DNA from: Candidatus Omnitrophota bacterium
GTDB taxonomy: Bacteria > Omnitrophota > Gorgyraeia > Zapsychrales > Zapsychraceae
Reading direction: 5' to 3'
NCBI GenBank assembly: GCA_021108075.1
Contig: JAIORP010000150.1
Location: 3,396-67,395 of the forward strand
DNA length: 64,000 nucleotides
The translations under genes were made by a program, and so were the position numbers. Positions 4,719 to 61,523 of the stretch are shown in pieces. The notes under the pieces are model-generated. The model was not told the origin of the DNA. It saw only the letters and a list, made by a program, of their open reading frames with translations, and did not search any database. The number at the start of each line of letters is the position of its first letter. Positions within the stretch are counted from its first letter, which is position 1.

Positions 4719-4768
4719 AGTGGTGAAGCTTTGAAATACACCATGTATAATTTCACGTTGGGCCGCGG

Positions 4769-5179
4769 TTGGCCAAAATTTTGTTATGGCTCAAAAAAAA
4801 TAAGCGCGGCCATTTACCGAAATCGCCGAGGAATCAGGCCATTCAGTATACGTTGAACATACGCGAGAGATTAACCCGTTACACCAAAGACGGCCGGCTG
4901 CCGATTGACAATAATCTAGAGGAAAATGCCATCCGACCAATTGCTCTGGGTCGCAAAAACTGGATGTTTTTAGGCAGGGAGAATGGCGGGCATGCGGCAG
5001 CGATCCTCATGACCTTTTGCGCGACCTGCCGCAAACTCAAAATCAACACCTGGGAATATCTCAAAGACATCCTACAAAGAATCAACACCCACCCGATGTC
5101 AAAAATAGATGAACTCCTCCCCGACCGCTGGCAGGAGCTTCGTCAGCAACAGCTTGATTATACCAAATCCAATAAATAA
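4769..5179 (+). CDS. IS66-family transposase C-terminal fragment, non-functional
   Basis: 136 aa, 95% identical to the C-terminus of the 6389..7105 product. The DDE core is missing. Confidence 0.7.
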   Translation: MAKILLWLKKNKRGHLPKSPRNQAIQYTLNIRERLTRYTKDGRLPIDNNLEENAIRPIALGRKNWMFLGRENGGHAAAILMTFCATCRKLKINTWEYLKDILQRINTHPMSKIDELLPDRWQELRQQQLDYTKSNK

Positions 5180-5184
5180 TTCAT

Positions 5185-5268
5185 CTGATTTCTCATTGCT
5201 ATTTGCGTAAAAGCGTTCGCAAAAAACGATGAAAAATTTGGGCAATTATTTAATGGAATTGGTATTAT
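5185..5268. repeat. MITE family A copy, inserted inside IS66 remnant copy 1
   Basis: Ends with the TIR CAATTATTTAATGGAATTGGTATTAT. The interior matches the inverted interior of the 40629..40772 copy (TTTTGCGAAYGCTTTTACGCAAATAGC). Confidence 0.6.
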
Positions 5269-5363
5269 AACAAATAATAATCTTCTGATACAGATGGGTT
5301 GCTCTGACGCTTACCATTTTCCTGTTAAAAAACAGCTTGAAGCTATAGAAAAGCATCATAAAT

Positions 5364-6040: not shown

Positions 6041-6398
6041 ATTGATAAAATTTGAATTTCCTTAATAAATTGATTACATCATAATAATTTTGAAATTATA
6101 TTGACATTTCTCAAACAATATTAAATTTCCTCGTCAAAAAACTTCCCGGACCAAACGTTAAACGCGCCGTGAAGAGCTCCCCGATCCGGACACAAAAAGA
6201 ACAAACTCAAAAGTCGTAAGTGAAACTCTCCCATACCATTACAGATACTTCCCAAAAACCAAAACTCCATTTCAAGGCCAAAAACCAAAATTTGTCCCAA
6301 AAAACATAGTCGTTTCCAAAAAAGCAATGAAACATTATCTGCATCTTGAGGCTTACGAAAACCCAATACAAAAAACACTGGAATATATTTGAAAGACA

Positions 6399-7142
6399 CC
6401 ATGTATAATTTCACGTTGGGCCGCGGGCGTGAAGGGCCGGTGGAATTTTTCAAAGGATACAAAGGGAATTTTGTATCTGACGCGTATGGAGGATATGAAG
6501 AATTATTTCGGGTAGAGGATATTACAAGTATATCGTGCCGGACACACGCGCGGCGGTATTTCAAAAAGGCGCAGGACACGAGTCCGAAGGCGGCGACGGA
6601 GGTCTTGACGCTTATCGCGTGGCTGTATAAAATCGAGAAAAAGATTAAAATGGATAATCCGGATATCCGTCGGAAGGTCAGAAAAAAAGAATCCCGTCCG
6701 CGGTTGGCCAAAATTTTGTTATGGCTCAAAAAAAATAAGCGCGGCCATTTACCGAAATCGCCGAGGAATCAGGCCATTCAGTATACGTTGAACATACGCG
6801 AGAGATTAACCCGTTACACCAAAGACGGCCGGCTGCCGATTGACAATAATCTAGAGGAAAATGCCATCCGACCAATTGCTCTGGGTCGCAAAAACTGGAT
6901 GTTTTTAGGCAGTGAGAATGGCGGGCATGCGGTAGCGATCCTCATGACCTTTCGCGCGACCTGCCGCAAACTCAAAATCAACACCTGGGAATATCTCAAA
7001 GACGTCCTGCAAAGAATCAACACCCATCCGATGTCAAAGATCGACGAACTCCTCCCCGACCGCTGGCAGGAGCTTCATCAGCAACAGCTTGATTATACCA
7101 AATAATAATCTTCTGATACAGATGGGTTGCTCTGACGCTTAC
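6399..7142 (+). mobile_element. IS66-family remnant, copy 2, with a 5'-truncated transposase and an intact right inverted repeat
   Basis: CDS 6389..7105 (238 aa) corresponds to about the C-terminal half of an IS66 TnpC, including the DDE-region motif DNNLEENAIRPIALGRKNWMFLGS. No tnpA, tnpB or N-terminal half lies upstream. The terminal inverted repeat ends at 7142. Confidence 0.75.
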
Positions 7143-7156
7143 ATAAAATTCATCTA

Positions 7157-7237
7157 ATACCAATTCCATTAAATAATGACCAGAACCAATTCTGCTTTTC
7201 AGAATTGAAATAGAACAATTCATTAATGAATTTGTAT
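7157..7237. repeat. MITE family A copy, complete, with TIRs and a central hairpin
   Basis: Left TIR ATACCAATTCCATTAAATAATG, central palindrome CAATTCTGCTTTTCAGAATTG, right TIR CATTAATGAATTTGTAT. Confidence 0.6.
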
Positions 7238-7264
7238 AAATAACAGCTTAATGTTATTATATTT

Positions 7265-15628: not shown

Positions 15629-16051
15629 TCATCTTTGAATTATCCTCGCGGGAACTCCAACAGCAGTTGAGTTGATCGGTACATCTGTAATAACAACGGC
15701 ATTAGCGCCAATATTGACATTATCACCAAGCGTGATATTTCCTAAAACTTTTGCACCTGCACCTATAATCACATTATTGCCAATTATAGGCGCCCCTGGG
15801 CCAACCCTACCACCGATTGTCACATGTTGATTTATTTGAACGTTATTCCCAATAACACTCTCTTTATGGATGACGATGCCCATACCCATATGAGCAAGAT
15901 GAACATTCTGCCCAATTTTTGTCTCATAAGGGATAAAACAACAAAATGCGAAGCGTAATAATTGTTGAATGATAAAAGGAATCAAAGGAATGTGCCAACT
16001 ATAAAATTTATTCGATAAACGCCAAATATAATATGGCAAATTTGCAGTCAT
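15629..16051 (-). CDS. Hexapeptide-repeat (left-handed beta-helix) acetyltransferase
   Basis: Repeated [LIV]GxxxxI hexads (IGNNVQINQHVTIGGRVGPGAPIIGNNVIIGAGAKVLGNITLGDNVNIGANAVV). Confidence 0.7.
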   Translation of the reverse strand: MTANLPYYIWRLSNKFYSWHIPLIPFIIQQLLRFAFCCFIPYETKIGQNVHLAHMGMGIVIHKESVIGNNVQINQHVTIGGRVGPGAPIIGNNVIIGAGAKVLGNITLGDNVNIGANAVVITDVPINSTAVGVPARIIQR

Positions 16052-16065
16052 ATAAAAATCCTTTC

Positions 16066-17160
16066 TTACCTTAGCCCTTTATAAACTTTAATTGTTGAAT
16101 CTGCTATCTTGTTCCAATCCAACTTAGTCTGAGCAACACAATACGCATTGTCTCCATATTTTTTACAGGTTTCTTCGTTTAATAGTAATTTAGAAATCGC
16201 TTCAGCTAATAATTTCTCATCCTTCACAGGGACGATGTATCCTGTTTTCCCGTCTTCCAAAATTTCACTTATACTTCCGGCATCTGTTGCGACCACTGGT
16301 TTGCCAAAACCAAAGGCAAGGGGCAAAATCCCACTCTGAGTAGCACTAACATATGGCAGGACAACAATATCAGAATTCTCGAACAAAGTGGCGACCTGAG
16401 AACTTAAAATATAATCATCTATTATCTCGAATTTATTTTTATCCTTTATCAAATTCATATAATAATCTAAAGTCCCAGAAAAATTACCTGCGATACAAAT
16501 TTTATATCTAGAAAACTTTTTAGAGATATAGGGTTCGGCCTTTATCAAATACTCCAATCCCTTATTTGGTCTAATACTCCCAAAGAATAAAATTCGCTTA
16601 TAATTCACAGTCCCAATCAGTTCTTGCCCGTCTGGGCGAATCATCCTTTTATAAAAAGAAAATTCTCCGTGCGGAATGACATGTACATCCTTTTCATTTA
16701 AAGAATAGCGTGAAACTAAGTCTGTTTTCATCTTTTCACCATGTACAATAAAACTTGAAGAATGTTTAATATTCCATTTCTGACTTAAATCCCTATATGT
16801 TCTATTACTTATCCCGTAATGCTGATATGGATCATGCACAGTGAAGACCAACGGAATATCTCGAAATAACCAACGGTACATTGCGAACCAAATATTTCCA
16901 ATCTGTATATGAATGACATCATAAGAACTAAATTCTCGCATTATAGCGTAATAGCTCCAAATATTACGAACATCCCTAATCCGATAATGAGTTATTGCTC
17001 GCTTCTCAATAGAGGGATTCAACACTTTTAAAATAGTTGGATCGCCTCTTTCTACAAATATACCGTCATAAAAAAAAGATACCTGACACTTCCTAGAAAG
17101 CGCATTAGCTAAACATAGAGAATATTCAATTGGACCTGAAAATAGTGCGACTTTTATCAT
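16066..17160 (-). CDS. Glycosyltransferase family 4
   Basis: GT-B fold with the C-terminal block SATQSGILPLAFGFGKPVVATDAGSISEILEDGKTG. Confidence 0.65.
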   Translation of the reverse strand: MIKVALFSGPIEYSLCLANALSRKCQVSFFYDGIFVERGDPTILKVLNPSIEKRAITHYRIRDVRNIWSYYAIMREFSSYDVIHIQIGNIWFAMYRWLFRDIPLVFTVHDPYQHYGISNRTYRDLSQKWNIKHSSSFIVHGEKMKTDLVSRYSLNEKDVHVIPHGEFSFYKRMIRPDGQELIGTVNYKRILFFGSIRPNKGLEYLIKAEPYISKKFSRYKICIAGNFSGTLDYYMNLIKDKNKFEIIDDYILSSQVATLFENSDIVVLPYVSATQSGILPLAFGFGKPVVATDAGSISEILEDGKTGYIVPVKDEKLLAEAISKLLLNEETCKKYGDNAYCVAQTKLDWNKIADSTIKVYKGLR

Positions 17161-17732
17161 GATAAAAAAGGAAAATGTTTAATTATGTATGTTAGCTTTG
17201 ATTTTCTTTCCCCAATTTTTTTAGCAGGAATTCCACCTACTATTGTCATTGGAGCAACATTTCGCGTTACAACAGCATTTGAGGCTACAACAGCCCCTTT
17301 CCCAATTTTTACTCCAGGCAAAATAGTAACTCTTGAACTTATCCAAACATAATCTTCGATGATGACATCTCCACTTTTTGTATCATGAAAATCTGAATTA
17401 AGGTCGTGCTCTAAAGTAAAAATATTAGTTTCTCTCGCGATATCAACATTATCACCAATACAAATGCGTCCTATTCTACCATCTAATAAACAATAGGAAT
17501 TTATTACCGAGTTGTTTCCAATAACAATTTGATTCTTTTTTAAGGATCGATTCAATATTTCAACATTTGTCAATATGTTAGAGTCGTTTCCTATATTTAC
17601 ATATAATCGTATCAATGGCATTCTAATACAAGCAAAAGGGATACGATTAATCAGTTTATTAAATATATACATGCGTAATGCTTGAATGAACATATATAGT
17701 TGTTTTAATATATAAATTTTTTTTAATTCCAT
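17157..17732 (-). CDS. Hexapeptide-repeat O-acyltransferase (maltose/galactoside acetyltransferase-like)
   Basis: LbH repeats ISSRVTILPGVKIGKGAVVASNAVV. Confidence 0.65.
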   Translation of the reverse strand: MELKKIYILKQLYMFIQALRMYIFNKLINRIPFACIRMPLIRLYVNIGNDSNILTNVEILNRSLKKNQIVIGNNSVINSYCLLDGRIGRICIGDNVDIARETNIFTLEHDLNSDFHDTKSGDVIIEDYVWISSRVTILPGVKIGKGAVVASNAVVTRNVAPMTIVGGIPAKKIGERKSKLTYIIKHFPFLS

Positions 17733-17745
17733 GATAAGCTTTAAA

Positions 17746-18645
17746 TTACTGTTTTATGATTTTATGTTTGAAATATCCGCCTACGTAGTAAAACATTCTT
17801 TTCATAATATTCATATAAGCCCACAATGAATTGCAGTGACGTTTATAAAACTTAAATTCGATTATTACATTCTGGGGAGATTTTATGTCAAAAAGAGTTT
17901 TTATTAACTGGACAAAACTCCCGTTATGCAATTTTCCCGTATTTGATTCATCATTCCATATTTTTAACATTGGAAAAGCTAACAATTTAAATCCACTCTC
18001 TCCTGCCCGTAAGGTGAAATCACTATCTCCATGATATTGAGGAAAGTTTTTATTATCAAAAAAACCAATTTTCCTAAAGACAGAACTAGGAATTAATGTC
18101 CCCATTCCACCAGACCAATCTGCATCCACAATATTATGATATTTCTCTGAATCTACCTGATTAAATCCTGTTAATTTCTTCATTCCTTTTCTTTTGTCAA
18201 ACAAACAGCCCATATTGAAGATTACATTAGGTCGATCTAAATAATAAATTTTTGATAATACAATAATATTATTTTTTAAAGATTTTATTATTATATACAA
18301 TTCCTTAAAATAATTAACTGCTGGTTTAGTGTCATGATTCCATAGCAAAATATAATCACAAGAATAATTATTCAGTGCATATTTGACACCTACATTTACT
18401 GCTCCCGACCACCAAAGATTCCCATCCCCTTTTAAAACAACTATATTCGGATAATTATCTTTGAACCAGTCAGCAGTTCCATCAGTCGAGCCATCATCAA
18501 CAAAAATAATCTTAATATCATCTTTGTGCCCAGAAAAATTAATGGATGCGATAAGATATTTCATATATTTCTTAATACAACTTAAACCATTATGCACAGG
18601 GCAAATTATTGATATCACGATGACCTCATAGTTGATTCTTAGCAT
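17746..18645 (-). CDS. Glycosyltransferase family 2
   Basis: GT-A motifs IIFVDDGSTDGT and DxD region. Confidence 0.7.
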   Translation of the reverse strand: MLRINYEVIVISIICPVHNGLSCIKKYMKYLIASINFSGHKDDIKIIFVDDGSTDGTADWFKDNYPNIVVLKGDGNLWWSGAVNVGVKYALNNYSCDYILLWNHDTKPAVNYFKELYIIIKSLKNNIIVLSKIYYLDRPNVIFNMGCLFDKRKGMKKLTGFNQVDSEKYHNIVDADWSGGMGTLIPSSVFRKIGFFDNKNFPQYHGDSDFTLRAGESGFKLLAFPMLKIWNDESNTGKLHNGSFVQLIKTLFDIKSPQNVIIEFKFYKRHCNSLWAYMNIMKRMFYYVGGYFKHKIIKQ

Positions 18646-18755
18646 TGTCCATAATAAACAAGGCCGTTTTATAAACTTTAATTATTTAGGAATATATGTT
18701 TTTCTTGATTATAAAAAAGCGAACTGCTGATATCTTTTTTGTTCATTATCTTTCT

Positions 18756-19967
18756 TTATTTTGTTATTTCATAGTTTCCTGGATGCAAAAGAAAACCAAT
18801 AATTGATATTGGAAATACTATTTGAATAATGCCACCACTAAAATTATATGAATGTCCCCAAAATGCAGGAACAACACACCAAAATATTGCAATGTTGATA
18901 ATTAATCTTGGCCTAGCGCAAGAATATTTCCAATAATTACGTATTATTACTGCATAAAATATTATAAATAGAATCAAACTTACTATCCCCGAATGAAGAG
19001 CCAATGATAAAAATGCAGAGTGTGGATCTTGTATTGTGCGTTCAAAAAGACCTGTTGAGATGTCTGATTTTAAAAAGTTTTCATTGCCATAACCAATCCA
19101 AGGTTTTTTTAGTATTCCCGTTATTGCTAATTTCCAAATTTCTAATCTATATAAGAAATCATTCATGAGTTTTTCTGTTAAGTCATTATTAAATTTGTAA
19201 TTAATAAAATAAAATAATACTAATGAATTAATCAATAGGAAAAGGTGTATCAGAATATTTTTAATATGCCAATTTATATTTTTGTAGCTTGGAAATATTA
19301 TCAAAAACGCACATAGAATTGTTGGAATTAAGACACTTCTACAATCAGTAAAAATTACAAATAACAACATTAATGCGGATAACAAGAAATACGTATATTT
19401 TTCTTTTTTTGTCCTGCTTATAGTTGCTCCAATTAAAGATAAAAGCATATTCATGCCACAAAGCATTGCAGTGTTTGCTGCTGGAAAAGCGCCACCTAAG
19501 CGCGATGAAAAATCATTATGATTGAGATGTATTAAAGGCGTACTCCCTCCTCTATATAAATGTAATAGTACGCATGCAAATGTTATAGTAGTGATTGTCA
19601 TAGTAAATATCGAAAAGGCTTTTTTTAATTCTAAACTATGCAACAGCGATACTGAAAACAAAACTATTCCAAAACTAAAAAATATTGCAATAAAATTTTT
19701 CAAAGATAAAAAAATATTAGGTCGTAAAAAAGAGATTATAAACAAATTAAATAGAATTAAAAAAATGATTAATTTATTTGGCATGTTAATTTTTAAATGC
19801 TTTAACAAAATTAAAAAAACAATTAATTCTAAAGCTGTTATGCCCAAATAAAAAATTCCATTACTTCCAGGATATGCAACAATAACCATTCCTTTACCCC
19901 AATTCCCAAAATTAAAAGCAATAAGCCATATAGTAACAAAGAATATAATTGATATTTTTTTTTGCAT
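18756..19967 (-). CDS. Wzy-type O-antigen/EPS polymerase or ligase-like polytopic membrane protein
   Basis: 403 aa, about 10 TM helices with a large loop. It sits between a GT2 and Wzx in a polysaccharide cluster. Confidence 0.5.
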   Translation of the reverse strand: MQKKISIIFFVTIWLIAFNFGNWGKGMVIVAYPGSNGIFYLGITALELIVFLILLKHLKINMPNKLIIFLILFNLFIISFLRPNIFLSLKNFIAIFFSFGIVLFSVSLLHSLELKKAFSIFTMTITTITFACVLLHLYRGGSTPLIHLNHNDFSSRLGGAFPAANTAMLCGMNMLLSLIGATISRTKKEKYTYFLLSALMLLFVIFTDCRSVLIPTILCAFLIIFPSYKNINWHIKNILIHLFLLINSLVLFYFINYKFNNDLTEKLMNDFLYRLEIWKLAITGILKKPWIGYGNENFLKSDISTGLFERTIQDPHSAFLSLALHSGIVSLILFIIFYAVIIRNYWKYSCARPRLIINIAIFWCVVPAFWGHSYNFSGGIIQIVFPISIIGFLLHPGNYEITK

Positions 19968-20073
19968 TTATTAAAGTCTTTTTAAAATAATTTAAATTTT
20001 ATAAAACATTTTCCTCGCATACCACTTTGTTTCATACAAAGCCTTATTTATTTAAATTAAAATCATAAATAAA

Positions 20074-21468
20074 TCAATAATCTGAATTAATTACATAATT
20101 TTTTCCTGTCATATTATTTCTAGTAAATTTATACATATAAAATAATATTTTTAACCAAATTGCACTGATTATCAAACCTATACAGTTAATTAGTGTCACT
20201 CTAGTCAAAGTTAAGGGAAAATTTGATAATATAAAAAACAAAATTATTCCAAAATTAAGAACTAATCTAACCCATTTTTCACTCGCACTATAGAGCACTT
20301 TTCCAATTCCTATAAACATATAGTGATCTGGGACAGCTAATGCATTAAAAAACCATCCTATTGCTAATATTTTTAAAATTATAGATATTTGAATATTAAA
20401 TTCTTCACCAAGCCATATACTTAAAATTTGGTTAGAAAATACAAAAAGAAATAAAAATATAGGTATTGCACAAAAAAATATAAGTTTCATACATTTTGCA
20501 TGTACCTGTAAAACAGATTGCTTTGAACCAACATTGGTCTTATTGACATTACTAATTTTTGGTATAATAGATTCTAATCCTTTAACAAATAAACCTCTTA
20601 CAGCAAATATAACTTGAGTAGCAATTTGATAATATGCAACTTCTGAAAGACCAACATATCTTGCAATTATAATTTTGTTAAACGGAATTACCAGCATATT
20701 GGCAATGCTACCCGTCATAAATACACCGCCAAATTTTATTAACTCTTTACATTTAGCAATATTAAACAAAAAAGGATAAAAAATTATAATTGAGAAGTGT
20801 TTAAATAGGATGTAAACACTTACACTAAAAGCAAAAATATAAAACATAATATGAGACAAATATAATCCCCATACGCCGTATCCAGAAACCAACAATATCA
20901 CAGCAATCATAATTTGAAGAATTCTGCAAATTAAATAGATATAGTTCGCTATATCCATCCTTCCAACACCTGCTAGTACACCTTTAATAAGATTCAGGTA
21001 AAAACAAAAAATTGACAAAACACCAACACCTAAAATTAAGGATGAACTACTGTCTAAAAGAACTGATTGAATTTTTAAAAAAGCAGCAATATTTTTATTA
21101 AACACCATTAACAATCCTAAAATAAGTATGGTAGGAATTAATAATAAATATATCGCAGTTGTAATATATTTAGATATATTCAAAATATCTTTCTTAGCAT
21201 ATTCACCTGCAACACTTCTCATAATAGCAGTACCCATTCCCATTTCACCTAATAAACCATATGTCAATATCACAGATAATGTTACCCATACACCATATAA
21301 TTCAACACCCAAATATTTTAAATATATTGGATAAGATATTAATGTTACTAAAATATTTAATCCAGAAAAAATAGCTCCTGATAATACATTTTTCTTTAAT
21401 TGCGATAAATCATTATATTTATTTGTTAATTTCGATAACAATTTCACAAAAGAATCTAACCTATACAT
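20074..21468 (-). CDS. Wzx-type oligosaccharide flippase (MOP superfamily)
   Basis: 464 aa, about 12-14 TM helices, position within the polysaccharide cluster. Confidence 0.65.
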   Translation of the reverse strand: MYRLDSFVKLLSKLTNKYNDLSQLKKNVLSGAIFSGLNILVTLISYPIYLKYLGVELYGVWVTLSVILTYGLLGEMGMGTAIMRSVAGEYAKKDILNISKYITTAIYLLLIPTILILGLLMVFNKNIAAFLKIQSVLLDSSSSLILGVGVLSIFCFYLNLIKGVLAGVGRMDIANYIYLICRILQIMIAVILLVSGYGVWGLYLSHIMFYIFAFSVSVYILFKHFSIIIFYPFLFNIAKCKELIKFGGVFMTGSIANMLVIPFNKIIIARYVGLSEVAYYQIATQVIFAVRGLFVKGLESIIPKISNVNKTNVGSKQSVLQVHAKCMKLIFFCAIPIFLFLFVFSNQILSIWLGEEFNIQISIILKILAIGWFFNALAVPDHYMFIGIGKVLYSASEKWVRLVLNFGIILFFILSNFPLTLTRVTLINCIGLIISAIWLKILFYMYKFTRNNMTGKNYVINSDY

Positions 21469-21513
21469 TTGTTAACTTCCGTTATAAATATTCACCATAT
21501 ACCACTTATTTTG

Positions 21514-22527
21514 CTATTTATATCCAAATCTTTCATTCAACTGACCTGCACTCTTGTTAAATAACAATAAATCGTGGTCACTGAAACTTGTGGTCCATAT
21601 CTCTTCAGAAGGTTGAATTGATTTAGCATTTATTCTGGATGCATTACCACCAACCATATGATGAGTTTTTTTAGTTAAATCAAGCATACTGTCTTCCCAT
21701 TCCACCCCTAAATAATTACTTATATTATTAAATGTACTTTTGGGGTCTTTGCAAAAGTCTTCATGTTTAATTAGACAATAATTATCTCTTTTAAAAACAT
21801 CTAACAATAATTTTATTTTCTTGTTTACTTTCTTCCATTGAAAAACAGCGCTTTTAAAGTCAATTTTTACCTGACTCTTAAAGGTAGCGCACTTTTCTTT
21901 TTTTGAATCATTTTCTTTTTTTAAAAGCCGATATTCTCTTTTTAATATAGAATTCACCGTGGCTCGACCATCTCTTACCAAAAAAATATGCTTACATTCA
22001 ATTTCAGCTTTTAACAGTTTCTCCAGAAACAACGCCCTAATTACATCCTTTGAAGAATCGATAAGAATATTTTCTTGGACTTTATCAAATACTTTTCTGT
22101 ACAAAAATATATTATTCTGCATAGCTTCTTTTATTCTTCTGAATACAAACGGAAAATTTCCTGAATAATATAATAAAAAATCTATAAGCTTTAACCATCG
22201 AATAAAAGCCGATCCTTTTCCAATTTTGCAGTTTGTCGAAAAAGCATCCGGATTTCTTAGTAAATCAGTTTGAAACTCTTGATTAATGTGTCGCATCATC
22301 TTTGACCAAAATGGACATTCTTGTTGTCCTACACCACAACTACAGATAGAATTTTTTATAAACTCCTCAGTAAAATGATTAATTTCACCTAAAGAAAAAC
22401 AATCTGAATGTGAGCCTAAAAATTTATCCAAGACAGTCGATCCACTACGCCCAACACTTAGAATAAATATAATTTTCTTTTTCATTTTTTCATCCTTTTG
22501 AGCAACATGACAACCTATAACTACCAA
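21514..22527 (-). CDS. Sulfotransferase-family protein
   Basis: The PAPS 5'-phosphosulfate-binding motif FILSVGRSGSTVL near the N-terminus. Confidence 0.6.
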   Translation of the reverse strand: MVVIGCHVAQKDEKMKKKIIFILSVGRSGSTVLDKFLGSHSDCFSLGEINHFTEEFIKNSICSCGVGQQECPFWSKMMRHINQEFQTDLLRNPDAFSTNCKIGKGSAFIRWLKLIDFLLYYSGNFPFVFRRIKEAMQNNIFLYRKVFDKVQENILIDSSKDVIRALFLEKLLKAEIECKHIFLVRDGRATVNSILKREYRLLKKENDSKKEKCATFKSQVKIDFKSAVFQWKKVNKKIKLLLDVFKRDNYCLIKHEDFCKDPKSTFNNISNYLGVEWEDSMLDLTKKTHHMVGGNASRINAKSIQPSEEIWTTSFSDHDLLLFNKSAGQLNERFGYK

Positions 22528-23474
22528 TCCATGTCGTTATAAAATTTACATGCTAACGGTTCTGTTAGCATTCTAATTTGTTTAATTTCATTCAAATTAA
22601 GTAATTTTTTCCATCTTTTTATGTTTTCTTGACTATTTCTTTTTAAAACATGAGGACGATTATTTACTGGATCAGACGGATTGTCAATATTTGTAAATCT
22701 TTTTATAATTATCTCGATTTTTTTTGTAAAAACTAAATTCAATTTATCATAAAGATACTGAAATTTTTCTACTGGAAAATTAGAAATATCTTCATGACGA
22801 ATACCAATCATATTTGGATTCCGGTCTAAATACGCAAATAAAACTGAGTAAATACAATTCCATAACAAAGCGCCTTCTTCAATAATTGATAATTTATTAA
22901 AATCAATATTTAAATCAATACGCTCGCCTAAAAAATCGTCCATCAACTCTTTTTGTTTAATAAATTCTTGAAAATCAAATTTATAATTTAATCTCTTTAT
23001 GCTTCCGATAAAAGCTACAGGATGACGAATTATAATAACCGTGTCCATATTTAATTTTTTGTGCATCCATTCAGCAGAAAAACAAGCTATGGGATCTTTT
23101 ATCAATAATCTTGTAACCCAAGGTTTATATTTCAAAAGCCTGTATTTTCTTATTTTTTTGTCACCAAATATATTCCTTGCTATTGTTTTCAACATAAGCT
23201 CTTGTTTGTTTTTAGAGCTTAACTTCCATGGTTCTTTATATTTTGCCTTACCATTCAAAACATTTTTTAAAATATAATGGTATTTTTTTTCAAGCAATCC
23301 ACCATTTTTGATATAAGGATTCCATACATCCACACCCTCAACCCCCAAAACTTTATTGAAAGGTTCGAAAATATAACCAACATTAGGCGATAATGCTAAC
23401 ATTTTTCCAACAAAAGTAGTTCCACTTCTATGAGAACCTGTTACTAAAATCGTATTTTTCTTTTTATTTTGCAT
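22521..23474 (-). CDS. Sulfotransferase-family protein (second paralog)
   Basis: N-terminal ILVTGSHRSGTTFV motif. Confidence 0.6.
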   Translation of the reverse strand: MQNKKKNTILVTGSHRSGTTFVGKMLALSPNVGYIFEPFNKVLGVEGVDVWNPYIKNGGLLEKKYHYILKNVLNGKAKYKEPWKLSSKNKQELMLKTIARNIFGDKKIRKYRLLKYKPWVTRLLIKDPIACFSAEWMHKKLNMDTVIIIRHPVAFIGSIKRLNYKFDFQEFIKQKELMDDFLGERIDLNIDFNKLSIIEEGALLWNCIYSVLFAYLDRNPNMIGIRHEDISNFPVEKFQYLYDKLNLVFTKKIEIIIKRFTNIDNPSDPVNNRPHVLKRNSQENIKRWKKLLNLNEIKQIRMLTEPLACKFYNDMDW

Positions 23475-23517
23475 ATCCTGTCACAATTTATAAAAAAATA
23501 AAAATAATAGCACTCTT

Positions 23518-23958
23518 TTACCTTGCTAAAAACCATTCGTTCACTAAAACATCTTTATTATAATCAAGTTGATTATTAGTCTTCGTATTCACAACTCTCG
23601 CCCCTACCTCCTCTACGATCGCGTGCCCAGCAGCAGTGTCCCACTCCATCGTAGGAGCAAATCTTGGAGAAGCATCAGCTTTGCCTTCGGCTACAAGGCA
23701 TAATTTTAGCGAACTTCCGGCTGATAGCACTTCTACTTTGCCGTGGATTTTCTTTTGCTCTTCAATATATTCTTCTGTTTCTTTTGACATATGTGAACGA
23801 CTGCCTATGATTGTAAATGATTCTCTTTTAATATCTAATGGCAATCTTGAAGCTTTTTTGAGTAGATACCCACGGGCGTGCCCGTGGCACTTAATTAATT
23901 TTTGTGCGAGCTTACGCTCGTCGCCCTCTGGGCGAAGGTTGCATTCACCCACGGGCAT
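23518..23958 (-). pseudogene. CysQ-like 3'(2'),5'-bisphosphate nucleotidase remnant with only the C-terminal half. Its 5' end is replaced by a palindromic insertion.
   Basis: C-terminal inositol-monophosphatase-family motifs (LKLCLVAEGKAD, WDTAAG) are present. The N-terminal metal-binding half (DPIDGT) is absent. The first 30 codons are read from the palindromic element at 23869..23966. Confidence 0.5.
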
Positions 23959-23966
23959 GCCCGTGG
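23869..23966. repeat. Small palindromic insertion element: two near-identical 19-bp palindromes flanking a hairpin-rich core
   Basis: CCCACGGGCGTGCCCGTGG at 23869-23887 and CCCACGGGCATGCCCGTGG at 23948-23966. Internal hairpins GCGAGCTTACGCTCG and CGCCCTCTGGGCG. Confidence 0.5.
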
Positions 23967-24050
23967 ATCTCTGCTAGCTTTTAGATTGCATTGAATTTAT
24001 TAGTAATAAATGCGAATATATTGCTATTGATGAATGAGAAGCTAAAAGAC

Positions 24051-25070: not shown

Positions 25071-25476
25071 AGTTTAAGTTATAAAAAAGTTAAAAGTAAA
25101 AAGAATTAAAATTCGGTTAAACACACTGAATTCCTGTCATACCCATTCGATCAAATAATGACCGGACGGGTACACAAAGTCAAACCTCAAAAAGCAAAGC
25201 GTGACTGACAGATGAATGATCTCTCCAACGCGCGCTTTAAACGACGGACCTGACATGCTCCCGCGACACAACCGGAATGATCACCTCCGACCCGCTCCCC
25301 AACGTTACCAAGCATAAAGCCTTTATTCCCATACACTAAGAACTCAGAGCATAAAATATATTTATATAGTAATATTATAGATATATATTAATAAATAATA
25401 GGTATTATAATAATAACAACAAATGTATCATACCTGATTGATTTGTCAAGGATTAATGCGGGGAAAGCAGGGCTGA

Positions 25477-25530
25477 AAAGTAGGGACGGATGGTACTTTT
25501 TTAAAAAAAGTACCATCCGTCCCTACTTTT
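25477..25530. repeat. REP-like palindrome family B copy: a perfect 25-bp-stem hairpin flanked by A/T runs, a bidirectional terminator candidate
   Basis: AAAAGTAGGGACGGATGGTACTTTTTTT/AAAAAAAGTACCATCCGTCCCTACTTTT. Confidence 0.55.
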
Positions 25531-26309: not shown

Positions 26310-26366
26310 AAAAAGTGAGGACGGTTGGTACTTTTTAAAAAAGTACCAACCGTCCCTACTTTTTCC
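26310..26366. repeat. REP-like palindrome family B copy between the zeta-toxin and AbiE genes
   Basis: AAAAAGTGAGGACGGTTGGTACTTTTT/AAAAAAGTACCAACCGTCCCTACTTTTT. Confidence 0.55.
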
Positions 26367-27653: not shown

Positions 27654-27706
27654 AGGTAATAATTATTCTTACCTATAGATTACCATATTTATTAAAAGTG
27701 TCAAAT

Positions 27707-27744
27707 AAAAAAGTACCAACCGTCCCTACTTTTCCCTACTTTTC
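27707..27744. repeat. REP-like palindrome family B half-copy with a duplicated CCCTACTTTT
   Basis: AAAAAAGTACCAACCGTCCCTACTTTTCCCTACTTTTC between the two AbiE pairs. No partner arm was found. Confidence 0.4.
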
Positions 27745-38431: not shown

Positions 38432-38445
38432 TGCGGTTACCTTTA

Positions 38446-38528
38446 TACCAAATCCATTAATGAATTGCTTTATCTTAATTCTGAAAAGCAGAATTGGTTT
38501 TGGTCATTATTTGATGGAATTGGTATTA
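38446..38528. repeat. MITE family A copy, complete, 83 bp
   Basis: ATACCAAATCCATTAATGAATTG ... central hairpin CAATTCTGAAAAGCAGAATTG ... CATTATTTGATGGAATTGGTATTAT. Confidence 0.6.
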
Positions 38529-40628: not shown

Positions 40629-40772
40629 ATACCAATTCCATTAAATAATTGCCAAAAAATTCTCATCGGTTTTTGCGAATGCTTTTACGCAAATAGCGAG
40701 GAGAAATCAGAAGAATTATTTATTGGATTTGGTCTCGCTATTTGTTCAATTATTTAACGCAATTGGTATTAT
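40629..40772. repeat. MITE family A copy, 144 bp, full TIR pair. It ends 3 bp before the acyltransferase ATG.
   Basis: Left TIR ATACCAATTCCATTAAATAATTG at 40629-40651. Right TIR CAATTATTTAACGCAATTGGTATTAT at 40747-40772. Confidence 0.6.
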
Positions 40773-40774
40773 CT

Positions 40775-41458
40775 ATGGAAACATTCACATTTCAGAAAGT
40801 TGATTTTGACGATAAAGAGTTGATGCAGCAAATATACCAGTTGCGTTTTCGGGTGTATTGCTATGAATGTGGCTTTATTAACGAAGCGGATTATCCTGAT
40901 CAAATTGAACGTGATGAATACGACCCGCAATCCGTGCATTTTGCCGCATTGAATGAACATCAAGAAGTGATTGGAACGATGCGTCTTATTTTAAATGGCG
41001 ATCTGTTCATGCCATTGGAACATCATTGCAAAGATATCCGTATTGATCAAGGTGATGTCCCCCGCGATAAAATAGCCGAGATCTCACGCCTGGTCATCAG
41101 CAAGGACTTAAGAAGACGTAAAAAGGATGAGCTTTATTATGAGCCGCAAGTCTCAGATGAATCGGTCAAGAACAAGGAAAACCATGTTTTTTTACGACGA
41201 GCGAAGCCGATGGCCTTTGGTCTCTATCGTGAAGTTTACCGTGAAAGCTTAATGCGGGATATTATTCATTGGTATGCCTTAATGGAAAAAAGTTTGTGGC
41301 TACTGCTGCATATTCATGGCTTTACGTTTGACGCTGTTGGCGCAGAAGTCGATGTGTATGGTCCTGTTAAGCCTTACTTGGGGCGTGTTGATAAAATAAA
41401 AGAAGAGGTTAAGAAGAAGTTTCCAGGATTTTTTGACTACTTTGCTGAAGGTGCGTAG
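40775..41458 (+). CDS. PEP-CTERM/exosortase-system-associated N-acyltransferase (FeeM/autoinducer-synthase-like GNAT; N-acyl amino acid synthase family)
   Basis: METFTFQKVDFDD...LRFRVYCYECGFINE...GTMRLILNG...EISRLVISKD is the hallmark layout of the exosortase-associated acyltransferase family. I chose the ATG at 40775; the track's TTG start at 40742 lies inside the MITE. Confidence 0.65.
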   Translation: METFTFQKVDFDDKELMQQIYQLRFRVYCYECGFINEADYPDQIERDEYDPQSVHFAALNEHQEVIGTMRLILNGDLFMPLEHHCKDIRIDQGDVPRDKIAEISRLVISKDLRRRKKDELYYEPQVSDESVKNKENHVFLRRAKPMAFGLYREVYRESLMRDIIHWYALMEKSLWLLLHIHGFTFDAVGAEVDVYGPVKPYLGRVDKIKEEVKKKFPGFFDYFAEGA

Positions 41459-50741: not shown

Positions 50742-50989
50742 TCGTTCGTTCTCAGAGGAATTTTTGGGGGATTCTTCAAGTTTTTTTAATAAAAATTTTC
50801 TGCCGTTCTGTCAATCCTAAATGATTGAAAAACAACATGTTGTGTCTCTATCCAATAGGACAACTCTTATCCTGTGCTTTGAGATGTTTGCTTTTTTTTT
50901 AAAAATATACAATACTATAACTATATATACTTATTATTCTATATCTATATAATTTTATTAAAATTATACATTGGTATAATTACAAAGAC

Positions 50990-51064
50990 CGATTCTGCTT
51001 TTCTCGACGCTATGGCAAGAATATCAGAATTGAAATAGAACAATTCATTAATGGATTTGGTATT
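50990..51064. repeat. MITE family A partial copy (right half with a 22-bp internal insert), ending 2 bp before the giant-gene ATG
   Basis: GATTCTGCTTTTC[TCGACGCTATGGCAAGAATATC]AGAATTGAAATAGAACAATTCATTAATGGATTTGGTATTAAAT matches 7185-7237. The insert matches, in inverse orientation, the insert in copy 60192..60298. Confidence 0.55.
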
Positions 51065-51066
51065 AA

Positions 51067-54000
51067 ATGGTGAACATGAAACGAAAAAGAATGTTTTTTG
51101 GAATGAATTGCCTGGTGCTTGCGGTTTTCATTTTTATGTCAACCCTGTCGAATTTTGTTTGCGCGCAAGGGATGTTTGTCGGCCGTCTCCCGCAACCGGG
51201 GCAGATGGTCTTTTTGAGTCCAGCGTTCAATCCTTTGGTCATCAAAGGGATCAAACTATACCCGCAAGAACCCTTGCGTTTTGATTTTATTATTGATGTT
51301 GGTGATTCGTCCACCCAGGAAGCCCCTCTGCGGGAAGCTTCTGCTAAGGCCATTAAATATTTCTTAGCGGCCCTGACGGTCCCTGAAGATGACTTATGGG
51401 TGAATCTTTCACCCTTTGAGAAAGATAGGATTATTCCAGATGATTTTGGCGTGACGGAAATGGGGCGGGACCTCTTAGCGCAGGATTACCTGTTAAAACA
51501 AATCACGGCATCCTTAATGTATCCGGAGGAAGAATTGGGCCGGAAATTCTGGGAGACGGTTTACCGGAAAGCGTATGACCAGTATGGCACAACGGATATT
51601 TTTATTGGAACATTTAACAAAGTTTGGATTTTGCCCGATCATGCGGAGGTGTTTGAGAATGGCGATTCCGCTTTAATTGTGGATTGCCGTTTGAGGGTCT
51701 TGACAGAATTTGATTATAAGGCGGAAGCCGAGCAGAGAGAAATTTCAACCCAGGATCAGAGTTTAAAAACCGATCATTTGAACAAATGGGGGCAGCGGAA
51801 TTCTTCATTAACCTCGGAAATCGTGCGAGAGATTATCATTCCGGAATTAGAAAAAGAGGTCAATGAAGGTCAGAATTTCGCAGACTTACGTCAGATTTAC
51901 CATTCCCTTATTCTTGCGACGTGGCTAAAGCAGCGTCTGAAAAATAGTGTGATGTCGAAGTTGTACATCAATCAGAACAAGACTGCGGGTGTAAACGTGG
52001 ATGATCCTGAAATTAAAGAGAAAATTTATCAGCAGTATTTAGCCGCCTACCGTAAAGGGGTTTATAACTATATCAAAGAGGATTATGATCCTTATATTCA
52101 GGATGTTGTGCCGCGGAAATATTTTTCTGGTGGAATGGATCTCGCCATGTTGGGTCAGGAAACGAATCAGATTTTGAAGATCGTTAAAAAATTGGATTGG
52201 TCCAAGCATGCCCAGCGTTTCACGAATTTGGTTATGACCGGCGTCATCTTAACCGTTGCGGGCACGTCTGCTGCTGATGTCGGCAATGTCAATCTGAATG
52301 CCATCAATCCCCCGGCCGGGATTGTCCAGCAAGGGGAACGTTTTGTTGCTGTGTCTTCTAATGTTCACTCCGATCCCTACAATGTTCCCGCCAAATGGAA
52401 ATCATTTGTCTTTGCGCCCCCATCAGGAGCAACATTAGACCTCTCGGGTTATCGGTATCTAAACGTAAGAGTTGGTGCGGGCGCGGGCAATGTGATTGTT
52501 GAATTAACGGATCTTTTGCAGGCTGAGCGGCAGCGTTTATTGGAACACAAAGGGGTCTATGACCGGAAACGGGCTTTAAGCCCGGTCTATATTGTCGGGC
52601 AAGGCGAGGATTTTATTTCGATTGATCTTGATGAAATTAAACAAAGCGACCCCCAGATTGACCTCTCAAAAATTATTCAAGTCAGCGTTAATGCCGGTGA
52701 GTATTTTTACTTTGACAAAATTAATTCTCGCGATGCGAATCTGCAGCTTTCCGGTGGTTTGTCTCTTTCTTCCACTCCGAAAATTCAGTCTAAGGCCGAA
52801 GACTTAAATGCTTTCCGTCAATTTTATGCAGCCAAACAACAAGAAAAAGAAGCCTTGAACGAGCGTTACAGAACAGAACCCCTTGTTTTACCACAAGGCG
52901 TATTAACCGGTGAGGCACAGTCTTTGCTCGGCGGGGAGTTTTCTGACCGTATTCAAGCGTTGGACAATGTCAGCGCCATTATAACAGATAAAAAGCATCC
53001 GAATTATGCCTCTGCCATCAAATTATTGCGGTACCACATGTTTAACCCTTTTCAAAACACAAATATTCGGCGGCACATTCATTACTTATTAAAAGACCGC
53101 GCTCAGGAGCAGGTCGATGAATATCTATTAGATGATTATGTCACGCATGGTTATCGTGTGACCGAACCGGTTGTTGTCCAGGTGCCGTATATCAAGACAA
53201 CACAGACAGGCACGACCTATCAATATGATGGCTGGGATGGCCAGAGTGAAAAAGCCCGCTTCACCGATAAAGGCACACAATACGGGGTTGAAGGGATTAT
53301 TACCGGTCCTGAAACGGTTGAACGTGTCTTGGATAAAAAAGTATTAGAACGTTTAGCGCATTGGTCGATCATTATGAATATTGATCCGATGACCATTACC
53401 TTTCCGACGATTTATACCGAGTCACTGCTTGGCGCCCACCCGGAGTTAACATACAATATTATGACGATCCATCAGCAGGATATTCACAGCATGCTGTCTG
53501 ACCGGGAGAAACAGTTACGGCAAGATCTTTTGGCAATGTTTGCCGAAGGTTCTTTTGATGAAAAGTTAGATGAAATTATCATCACCGGATTAATCATTAT
53601 GCAGCGCGGGTTTAACGTTTTTGCCAATTCTGACGCTGACTTGAGTAAGCGTCTTCAGGGCTATAATGGATATGGAACATATCCATGGGAACCATGGAAA
53701 GGTACCAATATGGCTAAAGAGCCTGTCATCGGCCGTCGCGCCGTCAAGGTCGGCGAGTTCATCAAGGACGGAATATTAAAGGATATTAGTGCGGCCGTCG
53801 CAAAAGAGCTGAAGATTGACCTTCCGCTTCTTCCTCATAATTTACAAGGGGTCCGGATCGGGATTTCCCATGTCCGGCAAAGTCCTGTTGTCAAGAATTT
53901 GGTCGACGAGAAAAAGATCGATCAGGCGGTTGATGCCGACATGGCCATGCTGTCTCTCCCTCAGTATTTAAATATCGGCCGTTATAAATGGGCCATGCGC

Positions 54001-60164: not shown

Positions 60165-61523
60165 TTGTGGAGGAATGTTATCATGAAAGTCACACCAAAT
60201 CCATTAACAAATTGTTCTATCTTAATTCTGATATTCTCGCTAAATCGTCGAGAAAAGCAGAATTGGTGTTGGTCATTATTTAATGGAATTGGTATTATTT
60301 GTTCCGTTATATTTGGTGTTATCCTTTTATTGAATGGCGCGTCGCCTGTGGATGCGGCCGTTGTAAAGGTCGAGAAAACCGATATCGGATGGCAATTGCT
60401 CGTTGATGGACAGCCGTTTATCATTAAAGGCGTTTGTTACACGCCGGTCAAAGTTGGTGAGGACCCCGAAGACTTGACGATGCGAGACTGGATGATTGTC
60501 GATGATAATAATGACGGGATAATCGATAGCGCTTATCAAAGTTGGGTGGATTATGACCGCAATAACAAGAAGGATTCAGATGAACCAGCTGTCGGGGATT
60601 TTAAATTGATCAAGGACATGGGGGCAAACACCATCCGGCTTTATCATCATTCTTCATCCAATCCAAAAATTCAAAGTCTCAGTCGAAATAATCCTTTGTT
60701 TGATCATGCGCCAAACAAGAAGCTGTTGCGTGACTTGCATCAGAAATATGGTTTATGGTTTGCGATGGGTGATTTTTTGGGCGCGCACACAATCGGGTCT
60801 GGCGCGACGTGGGAAAAGGGAACGGATTATACCGATCCGGTTCAACGCAAGAATATGATGCGTAGTGTGGAAGACCTGATTAATACTTTTAAAGATGAAC
60901 CCTATGTGCTGTTTTGGACCATTGGAAACGAAAATAACCGGGCGGATATGAGCCGGACAAATGCTCAATTCCACCCGGAAGAATACGCGAAGTTTGTGAA
61001 TGAGGTCGCCAAACGGATTCATGAATTGGACCCGAATCATCCGGTTGCGCTGATCAATGGCGAAACAACGATGCTGGACATGTACCGCCGCTACGCCCCG
61101 GCTGTTGACATCATCGGCATCAATACGTATTTTTATTTCCCTGGAGGATTCGGCAGCTTATGGCGGGATATAGACAAGTTGTATGACAAGCCTGTTTTTG
61201 TCGAATATAAAAATGCTCATCCAACCATTCAGGGCGGGTCTCTTGATGAGATCATTGATTATCGGTTACATGTTGAAAGCTGGCGTGATATTATCCGTCA
61301 TACCGCGGGGAAAAGCCAGCCGGGGAACGCCATCGGAGGTTTTAAGTTTCAATGGTTGGATACTTGGTGGACAGATTGGGACCCGGCTTTTCAGAACTTA
61401 GCCAAAGACGGGTGGCACGGAGAGTATCACGGCATAGCCTCACAGGGCGACGGTCATAATAGTTTGTTTATCCGTCAGTTGCGGCATGTGTACTACGCTT
61501 ATCAAGAAATCTGGAAAGATTAA
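60165..61523 (+). CDS. Secreted clan GH-A glycoside hydrolase (GH5/GH2-like TIM barrel). Its start codon is uncertain because the 5' end contains a MITE copy.
   Basis: Signal-like LLLNGASPVDAAV, NTIRLYHH, the acid/base motif FWTIGNENN and a later Glu in VFVEYKN. Confidence 0.5.
   Translation: MWRNVIMKVTPNPLTNCSILILIFSLNRREKQNWCWSLFNGIGIICSVIFGVILLLNGASPVDAAVVKVEKTDIGWQLLVDGQPFIIKGVCYTPVKVGEDPEDLTMRDWMIVDDNNDGIIDSAYQSWVDYDRNNKKDSDEPAVGDFKLIKDMGANTIRLYHHSSSNPKIQSLSRNNPLFDHAPNKKLLRDLHQKYGLWFAMGDFLGAHTIGSGATWEKGTDYTDPVQRKNMMRSVEDLINTFKDEPYVLFWTIGNENNRADMSRTNAQFHPEEYAKFVNEVAKRIHELDPNHPVALINGETTMLDMYRRYAPAVDIIGINTYFYFPGGFGSLWRDIDKLYDKPVFVEYKNAHPTIQGGSLDEIIDYRLHVESWRDIIRHTAGKSQPGNAIGGFKFQWLDTWWTDWDPAFQNLAKDGWHGEYHGIASQGDGHNSLFIRQLRHVYYAYQEIWKD
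60192..60298. repeat. MITE family A copy, 107 bp with internal insert, lying inside the annotated 5' end of the hydrolase ORF
   Basis: ACACCAAATCCATTAACAAATTG...TCTGATATTCTCGCTAAATCGTCGAGAAAAGCAGAATTGGTGTTGGTCATTATTTAATGGAATTGGTATTAT. Confidence 0.55.

Follow-up and report, generated by a model that had tools for sequence, protein, structure and literature searches.

MITEs with 3-bp target-site duplications in an Omnitrophota genome, very probably dependent on an IS630-type transposase

Introduction

RUP of Streptococcus pneumoniae and Nezha of cyanobacteria are non-autonomous MITEs derived from IS630 and are thought to be mobilized by IS630-family transposases. The IS630, ISY100 and Tc1/mariner elements insert at TA and generate a 2-bp duplication (PMC2170065), although a precedent for a duplication other than TA exists in ISHsp2, a two-ORF IS630 member whose duplication is reported as TTAA (PMC3606827). 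Promoter activity, RNase III processing and in-frame insertion have all been recorded for known MITEs (PMC10969869). In the Correia elements the ends together with the duplicated target form outward sigma-70-like promoters, and the Rickettsia palindromic elements (RPE) are palindromic MITE-like repeats lying in frame within genes, without stop codons (PMC10969869).

The DNA analysed here is a 64-kb stretch (the window), assigned to a Candidatus Omnitrophota MAG by exact protein look-ups. It covers a polysaccharide locus of the PEP-CTERM/exosortase type, in which there are also GH2-like hydrolases, a 3010-aa gene, remnants of IS66 and a two-component set of the sigma-54 type. A preliminary description of this DNA had reported at least six copies of a short inverted-repeat element and had interpreted them either as a MITE with an insertion preference for gene 5' ends or as a co-opted regulatory cassette. 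A literature search found no paper that connects Omnitrophota to MITEs. Our analysis indicates that the repeats are very probably MITEs without a gene of their own, which depend on an IS630-type transposase and have spread recently in this genome. The IS630 assignment is based on the identity of the ends and on the TNA duplications of the partner elements themselves.

Results

Copies, boundaries and ends

The family in the window consists of six copies and two fragments; the copies are 80–105 bp long (79 bp in copy 2) and have inverted ends. Counting fragments, there are eight in 64 kb. The features are as follows.

5161–5264, plus strand: copy 1, 104 bp, subfamily B, in the 3' end of an IS66 remnant; TTA at 5158–5160 and 5265–5267
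6975–7142, plus strand: IS66 3' end without a MITE, the paralogous empty site for copy 1; reads GATTA, then TACCAAAT, at the junction
7158–7236, minus strand: copy 2, 79 bp, subfamily A, with a 22-bp internal deletion; TAA at 7155–7157 and 7237–7239
25140–25168, plus strand: isolated degraded end fragment, subfamily A (TACCCATTCGATCAAATAATGACCGG); 3 mismatches in the end scan
38446–38525, plus strand: copy 3, 80 bp, subfamily A, deletion variant; TTA at 38443–38445 and 38526–38528
40630–40734, minus strand: copy 4, 105 bp, subfamily B, between divergent genes; 91% complementary to 5162–5239
40738–40768, plus strand: second, 5'-truncated copy (right end only) abutting copy 4; 2 mismatches in the end scan
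50967–51062, minus strand: copy 5, 96 bp, subfamily A, long form, left end degraded; TTA at 50964–50966 and 51063–51065
60193–60294, plus strand: copy 6, 102 bp, subfamily A, long form, in a GH2-like gene; flanks TCA (60190–60192) and TTA (60295–60297)

All six copies of the preliminary description are present where it had placed them, but two of its starts had to be moved outward, from 5185 to 5161 (diverged left end) and from 50990 to 50967 (degraded left end). The end common to the copies is TACCAAWTCCATTAAWKAAT. When a 23-nt pattern of this end was searched with at most 3 mismatches, 11 matches were found in the window compared with 0.01 in shuffled sequence, bearing out the shared inverted terminal repeat; a 20-nt end scan of the window gave 13 matches, again at ≤3 mismatches. 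Matches with 4–5 mismatches were disregarded, their frequency in the window being at the level of the shuffles. The elements start with TACCAA(A/T)TCCATTAA and finish with its reverse complement, 20–23 nt being conserved on both sides, and a full MITE can therefore fold as a single long hairpin. At 79–105 bp the copies are below the ∼300 bp that bounds prokaryotic MITEs, and none contains an ORF.

Repeat finding gave a pairwise identity of 86–91% over 78–86 nt between window copies: copy 2, of which the right end is one base short and which lies 15 bp beyond the IS66 end, is 91% complementary to 38449–38528, and copy 5 is 86% complementary to 60194–60279. Copy 3, on which the preliminary description was centred, has convergent genes on both sides and a hairpin of −26.3 kcal/mol (z = −5.3). 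In copy 4 the final base of the right end is mutated (GGTC) and the left flank is ATA. The truncated copy beside it is followed by TTA (40769–40771), TCT and the ATG at 40775 of a FeeM-like acyltransferase gene.

Two interior types, subfamilies A and B, are homologous end to end and are bridged by copies from other genomes. A 22-bp segment had previously been read as an insert, carried by two copies in opposite orientation. It is not an insert: in other genomes the standard form has 102–104 bp, and it is the 80-bp copies that have lost 22 bp internally, through a deletion common to both. Nor does its orientation differ, since it is the same relative to the element in both long copies, and those two elements lie on opposite strands. 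Judged from these alignments, the 102–104-bp form with the segment is the ancestral state. The central hairpin noted earlier (CAATTCTG-N5-CAGAATTG) exists but is confined to the two 80-bp copies.

The window also contains a second repeat family of near-perfect palindromes (25476–25530, 26310–26364, 27706–27734 and 2150–2217) with arms of 26–32 nt (AAAAGTAGGGACGG(A/T)TGGTACTTTTTT). They sit between consecutive minus-strand genes and resemble either bidirectional terminators or a further mobile palindrome of small size. A low-GC island (16000–24000; 27–32% GC compared with ∼40% elsewhere), a minus-strand block between exosortase-associated and PEP-CTERM genes, would fit horizontally acquired sugar-modifying genes.

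Target-site duplications and empty sites

To count duplications, the element was defined as TACCAA...TTGGTA. Of 46 paired copies, taken from the window and from other genomes, 27 had identical 3-bp flanks, compared with 0–1 of 45 at control offsets; the duplicated triplets were TAA/TAA (16), TTA/TTA (10) and TCA/TCA (1). In the window the duplication is TTA at copies 1, 3 and 5 and TAA at copy 2, the latter being scored as a mismatch owing only to its one lost end base and reading TAA/TAA by eye. The TA or ATA duplication proposed as a candidate in the preliminary description was close, but the actual duplication is TTA or TAA. A perfect duplication is absent in 19 of the 46 copies, which is expected of old or mutated copies but is not proof of it. 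The ATA/TTA flanks of copy 4, together with its compound structure, count against the MITE reading.

A natural control is provided by IS66. The two IS66 3' ends of the window are 98–99% identical, and one is longer than the other by 107 bp, corresponding to the 104-bp element plus one 3-bp TTA. The claim that one copy lies inside an IS66 remnant is thus confirmed by the empty paralogue at 6975–7142. We considered three other definitions of the duplication and rejected each. A 2-bp TA duplication around an element CCAA...TTGG predicts an empty site other than that found in IS66, so that a TA-only model fails to regenerate it. A TA duplication combined with a 1-nt asymmetric end requires TAA and TTA to be linked perfectly to the orientation of the element; read by eye, this fits 12 cases and fails in 4, and TGA and TCA duplications exist. 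Finally, a 12-bp duplication (ATTATACCAAAT) at the IS66 site is seen at no other copy.

Beside copy 1, the IS66 target (5155–5170, compared with 7087–7105) reads TTA followed by TACCAAAT in the empty paralogue, matching the first 8 bases of the MITE. Adjacent MITE pairs in other genomes (L008, L011 and L022) share one duplication per pair. A preference for insertion beside an existing end was rejected, as the 46 copies include three adjacent pairs, by a rough estimate no more than chance. The end-like target and the shared duplications may reflect insertion beside an end-like sequence or a microhomology deletion. The partial IS66 transposase 3' ends themselves (4730–5314 and 6388–7142) have the same orientation, lie ∼1.7–1.9 kb apart and each finish with ...GACGCTTAC; they may be a tandem remnant or the result of a rearrangement.

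Dispersal of the family

In a 78%-identical relative, 28.6 kb of syntenic sequence carries zero copies compared with four in the matching part of the window. The corresponding upstream region of the relative (L075) lacks a copy where the window has copy 5, and its glycoside hydrolase orthologue (L076) constitutes a second natural empty site, in which the element is missing and the Shine-Dalgarno sequence (GGAGGAA) and the ATG are conserved. Copies are also carried by other contigs of the source genome (L102–L104), and other contigs have a terminus within a copy; copies 4 and 5 contain break points of independent assemblies. The same 22-bp deletion is found at three loci: in the copies starting at 7158 and 38446 and in one on a further contig of this assembly (L104:50-169, with TAA/TAA flanks), indicating that the 80-bp form spread after the deletion had arisen. 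We conclude that the MITE family has recently been active in this Omnitrophota lineage. The preliminary description had named copies confined to this locus, without duplications, as the pattern that would speak against mobility; instead, the inverted ends, the 3-bp duplication, the empty sites, the copies on other contigs and the matching autonomous IS630-family elements described below bear out its MITE reading.

Within its left end, the copy at L104:50-169 carries a palindromic mini-insert of ∼36 bp (GTGACTCTCC...GGAATTCAC) with TCCA on both sides, which may be a smaller nested element. Five contigs from the source genome and close relatives (L102–L106) contain (CG)CCTAGGAG(C/G)(T/C)TGTCCGAGAA within their last ∼70 nt, followed in four by CTAGTT. 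This sequence is absent from the window and is probably another multicopy repeat that breaks assemblies.

Partner insertion sequences

When one genome per species was scanned for the end pattern, paired ends 60–210 bp apart appeared in several lineages: an Omnitrophota MAG, a MAG labelled Planctomycetales, Bdellovibrio and Bdellovibrionales MAGs, and Paraglaciecola. The MITE interiors vary by lineage, and the A and B interiors are common only to the window, the other Omnitrophota MAG and the 'Planctomycetales'-labelled MAG. In the latter, a single MITE-like end (L049:3871-3895) lies in a 176-aa ORF and encodes ...ELINGIGII..., with the NGIGI that the end also yields in copy 6. The end pattern gave four single matches in viral contigs, three of them in one homologous coding-like stretch, and none is a MITE; MITE DNA gave no match when compared with plasmids.

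On a Psychromonas contig (L009) no more than ∼25 bp separate the end TACCAATTCCATTAATTAATTGG from the stop codon of a DDE_3 gene with the signature ...PPYSPELNPIEQVWSW..., and relatives of the encoded protein all contain PF13358. Complete elements of 1,090–1,093 bp from marine metagenomes start with TACCAATTCCATTAA...TGATCTAAT, finish with TTAATGGAATTGGTA (also read as ...TTAATTAATGGAATTGGTA) and encode an HTH ORF and a DDE_3 ORF, which are probably joined by frameshifting. The MITE ends are identical over 15–19 nt to those of L009 and five further partner loci (L079, L080, L086, L088 and L092). On NF033545, the NCBIfam IS630 model (cut-off 100), a related Aeromonas transposase reaches 270 bits, and the ends TACCAATCAGATTAAAG delimit a related element on finished replicons of Aeromonas, Citrobacter and Enterobacter. 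Autonomous elements with matching ends were found in other genomes and metagenomes only; no transposase of the partner clade is present in the window or in the MAG loci fetched, L009 being the only match among 47 genome loci. A literature search for the end sequence found no publication.

All full-length ISs inspected (L051–L054, L064 and L079–L092) have TGATCTAAT at positions 21–29 from the left end. One MITE end reads TGCTCTATT where the IS left end has TGATCTAAT, and this MITE end probably derives from the IS left end.

The 3-bp TNA duplication departs from the 2-bp TA duplication that is canonical for IS630-type elements. It is shared by the partners. Six independent, finished partner insertions in Aeromonas, Citrobacter and Enterobacter (L051 and L097–L101) are flanked by TGA, TTA, TCA, TAA, TAA and TGA, all perfect; further plasmids show TAA (L052) and TTA (L053), and metagenomic partner copies TTA, TCA and TAA. 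Since the partner ISs have it too, the TNA duplication is a property of the clade and not evidence against an IS630 derivation. The target of the clade is TNA, which nearly always means TTA or TAA in the Omnitrophota and related MAGs with their AT-rich sequence. No publication describing a TNA duplication for this clade was found in a literature search that did not cover ISfinder. An IS630-family clade with a 3-bp TNA duplication (6/6 finished insertions) may be of interest to transposon specialists.

The 3-bp duplication would by itself suggest a Tourist-like MITE, mobilized by a transposase of the IS5 or PIF-Harbinger type, as a 3-bp TWA/TNA duplication is a hallmark of PIF/Harbinger and of the IS1031 group of IS5. 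This we regard as highly improbable, because the ends are identical over those 15–19 nt to complete IS630-family HTH and DDE_3 elements, which show TNA duplications themselves, and no IS5-type gene was found beside any matching end.

Position relative to genes

Gene context was analysed for the 46 copies from several genomes after rebuilding their empty sites, using a crude ORF caller, so that start distances are approximate. Only 7 of 46 copies lie inside ORFs, compared with 84% of all TTA/TAA sites (p = 3e-24). Among intergenic copies, 17 of 39 (44%) are ≤40 nt upstream of a predicted start, compared with 27% of intergenic TTA/TAA sites (p = 0.03), and 6 of 39 are at or beside a stop codon, compared with 6% of intergenic sites (p = 0.03). 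The insertion preference for gene 5' ends proposed earlier is therefore present as a weak trend, but it is accompanied by a similar excess at stop codons and by a strong depletion within genes. TAA stop codons and AT-rich leaders are tolerated targets, and copies are consequently concentrated there; the distribution is consistent with a TWA target, rich in AT, and with purifying selection acting on a compact genome.

In the window, copy 1 lies in IS66, and copy 2 occupies the stretch from IS66 to the end of a gene. Copy 3 is flanked by convergent and copy 4 by divergent genes, copy 5 is placed just 5' of the giant gene, and copy 6 falls in coding sequence. Three copies had been described as abutting start codons. 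Copies 4 and 5 are indeed near starts, although at other distances than reported: copy 5 ends 4 nt before the ATG of the 3010-aa gene at 51067, and the copy 4 complex ends 6 nt before the ATG at 40775. The third, copy 6, instead interrupts a coding sequence, 7 nt downstream of the first base of the ATG at 60183. Two automatic ORF starts, at 40742 (in the truncated copy beside copy 4) and 60165 (upstream of the authentic ATG at 60183), are TTG codons and are not trustworthy.

Copy 6 plus one duplication (102 + 3 = 105 bp) corresponds to 35 codons, in frame and without a stop, after codon 3 of the GH2-like gene. The N-terminus of the hydrolase reads MKV-(TPNPL...NGIG)-IICSVIFGVILLLNG, that of the nearest orthologue (P0128, 84% identity) MKIILSVVLS..., and the proteins are 446 and 411 aa long, respectively, the gap coinciding exactly with the element. 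Copy 6 is a 35-residue insert in the signal peptide of the hydrolase (60183–60297).

Hairpins, promoter-like ends and their possible functions

Intact copies fold as long hairpins (z −3.1 to −6.6), and we asked whether the repeat might be a structured RNA which, once transcribed, acts as a stabilizing hairpin, an RNase III target, a terminator or a small RNA. In an alignment of 30 copies, 89.7% of the cells are paired, and changes on both sides occur at 10 pairs compared with 4.7 in shuffles (0 of 500 shuffles reach the observed value); half of the central-helix pairs (5 of 10), which lie outside the ends bound by the transposase, are among them. Such compensatory changes in the central hairpin are not predicted by the simple decay of a selfish element and count against a pure-MITE reading. 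However, automatic RNAalifold on the same alignment recovered the outer 8 pairs only, so that the structure of a single member was used in the covariation test, which biases the test toward that structure, and related sequences may outdo shuffles without any structural constraint. Palindromy is moreover general among MITEs, copies are found in either orientation with respect to adjacent genes and also within an IS, the hairpin has no U-tract on its 3' side, and Rfam at gathering thresholds gave no match anywhere in the window. While the alignment hints at constraint on the hairpin, a function of the repeat as a structured RNA is distinctly unlikely.

The regulatory-cassette proposal, in which the ends are retained as outward promoters or as an operator for adjoining genes of the exopolysaccharide locus, draws on the sequence formed at the insertion junctions. 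End plus duplication gives TGGTATTAT or TGGTATAAn (TGGTATWAn), which resembles an extended −10, with TGGTCA or TTGGCA 17–18 bp upstream, and the junction hexamers TATTAT, TATAAA or TATAAT are present at 40 of 92 ends. The −10-like terminal repeat pointed out in the preliminary description is correct at the sequence level: ATTGGTATTAT, found at four ends, consists of the last bases of the element, the duplicated TTA and one flanking T. An outward TGnTATWAn at each end, completed by the duplication, could act as an extended −10 promoter, as do sigma-70-like promoters in Correia and other MITEs (PMC10969869), and the modest enrichment within 40 nt upstream of predicted starts (17/39 against 27%, p = 0.03) and the hairpin pairs maintained through compensatory changes point the same way. 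Yet neither end is favoured on the side of a nearby start (5 versus 6), and the final T of the hexamer is present, as a raw share, at only ∼30% of ends (TATTAT, TATAAT and TATCAT, 28/92). At copies 4 and 5 the −10-like hexamer is 2 nt from the ATG or abuts it, too near for a normal leader; copies 1–3 face gene ends or an IS, copy 6 lies within coding sequence, and the 78%-identical relative keeps the gene order without the copies. Beyond the extended −10-like junction, the cassette proposal thus found no positive support, and we consider it unlikely.

A more far-reaching reading makes the family more than a parasite: each insertion would be a portable outward promoter, the compensated hairpin would act on the transcript, and Omnitrophota would have rewired surface-polysaccharide and giant-protein genes by this means; separately, the partner clade would be an uncharacterized branch of IS630/Tc1/mariner with a 3-nt TNA stagger. 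Taken as a whole, this reading appears doubtful. For the biology of the locus, the MITEs are most likely incidental.

Discussion

Our data favour MITEs mobilized in trans, and a 3-nt staggered cut is inferred from the duplications. In the model that we propose, an IS630-clade transposase would bind both MITE ends and excise the element, which would then be joined to T-N-A with a 3-nt stagger, duplicating TTA or TAA; the target would nearly always be TTA or TAA owing to the AT-rich genome. Intragenic insertions would mostly be purged by selection, and surviving copies would accumulate in short AT-rich spacers, on stop codons and shortly 5' of start codons. Any effects on neighbouring genes would be side effects.

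A mobile-element family of recent activity is thereby defined for Omnitrophota, a phylum known almost only from metagenomes. The family accounts for the breaks that short-read assemblies of these genomes show at its sites, exposes gene calls that wrongly start in the element (40742 and 60165) and reveals a hydrolase signal peptide with a 35-residue transposon-derived insert. The element is of an ordinary kind with a few unusual details: the family itself is new, and IS630-derived MITEs were already known. Two by-products are of most interest, namely the TNA duplication across the clade and the signal peptide that carries an in-frame insertion.

The closest relatives of the family are two-ORF IS630 insertion sequences, which include ISVsa8/ISHsp2-like elements and an unnamed Aeromonas/Enterobacterales element in pKAM643_2, pKHM-1 and others. 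They have their terminal sequence in common with the MITEs, all starting with TACCAAT and the marine metagenomic members with TACCAATTCCATTAA; they also have the same TNA duplication and are the presumed source of transposase. The MITEs differ from them in their length of 80–105 bp, the lack of an ORF and an unrelated interior, in which the weak echo TGCTCTATT of the subterminal TGATCTAAT is the sole trace of the IS. RUP and Nezha have TA duplications as reported, other ends and other hosts, and are set apart here by description.

The Correia (NEMIS) elements of Neisseria resemble the window MITEs in their size of ∼100–150 bp, their ∼25-bp inverted ends, their mostly gene-adjacent positions and their long hairpins. 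The 26-bp Correia ends nevertheless differ in sequence from those of the window MITEs, the Correia duplication is TA and no transposase has been identified for them, so that the window family, with its other ends and duplication, does not belong to Correia/NEMIS. Promoter, IHF and RNase III activities are experimental in Correia; by analogy, promoter activity and RNase III processing are plausible for the window MITEs. REP/BIME elements, which are mobilized by a RAYT tyrosine transposase, are GC-rich palindromes of 20–40 bp with a GTAG/CGTC head and no target duplication, whereas the window elements are AT-rich, 80–105 bp long, start with TACC and have duplications, and hence are not REP/BIME. 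The in-frame position of copy 6 recalls the RPEs. What is the rule for RPEs is, however, one case in ∼46 here, most copies of the window family being intergenic.
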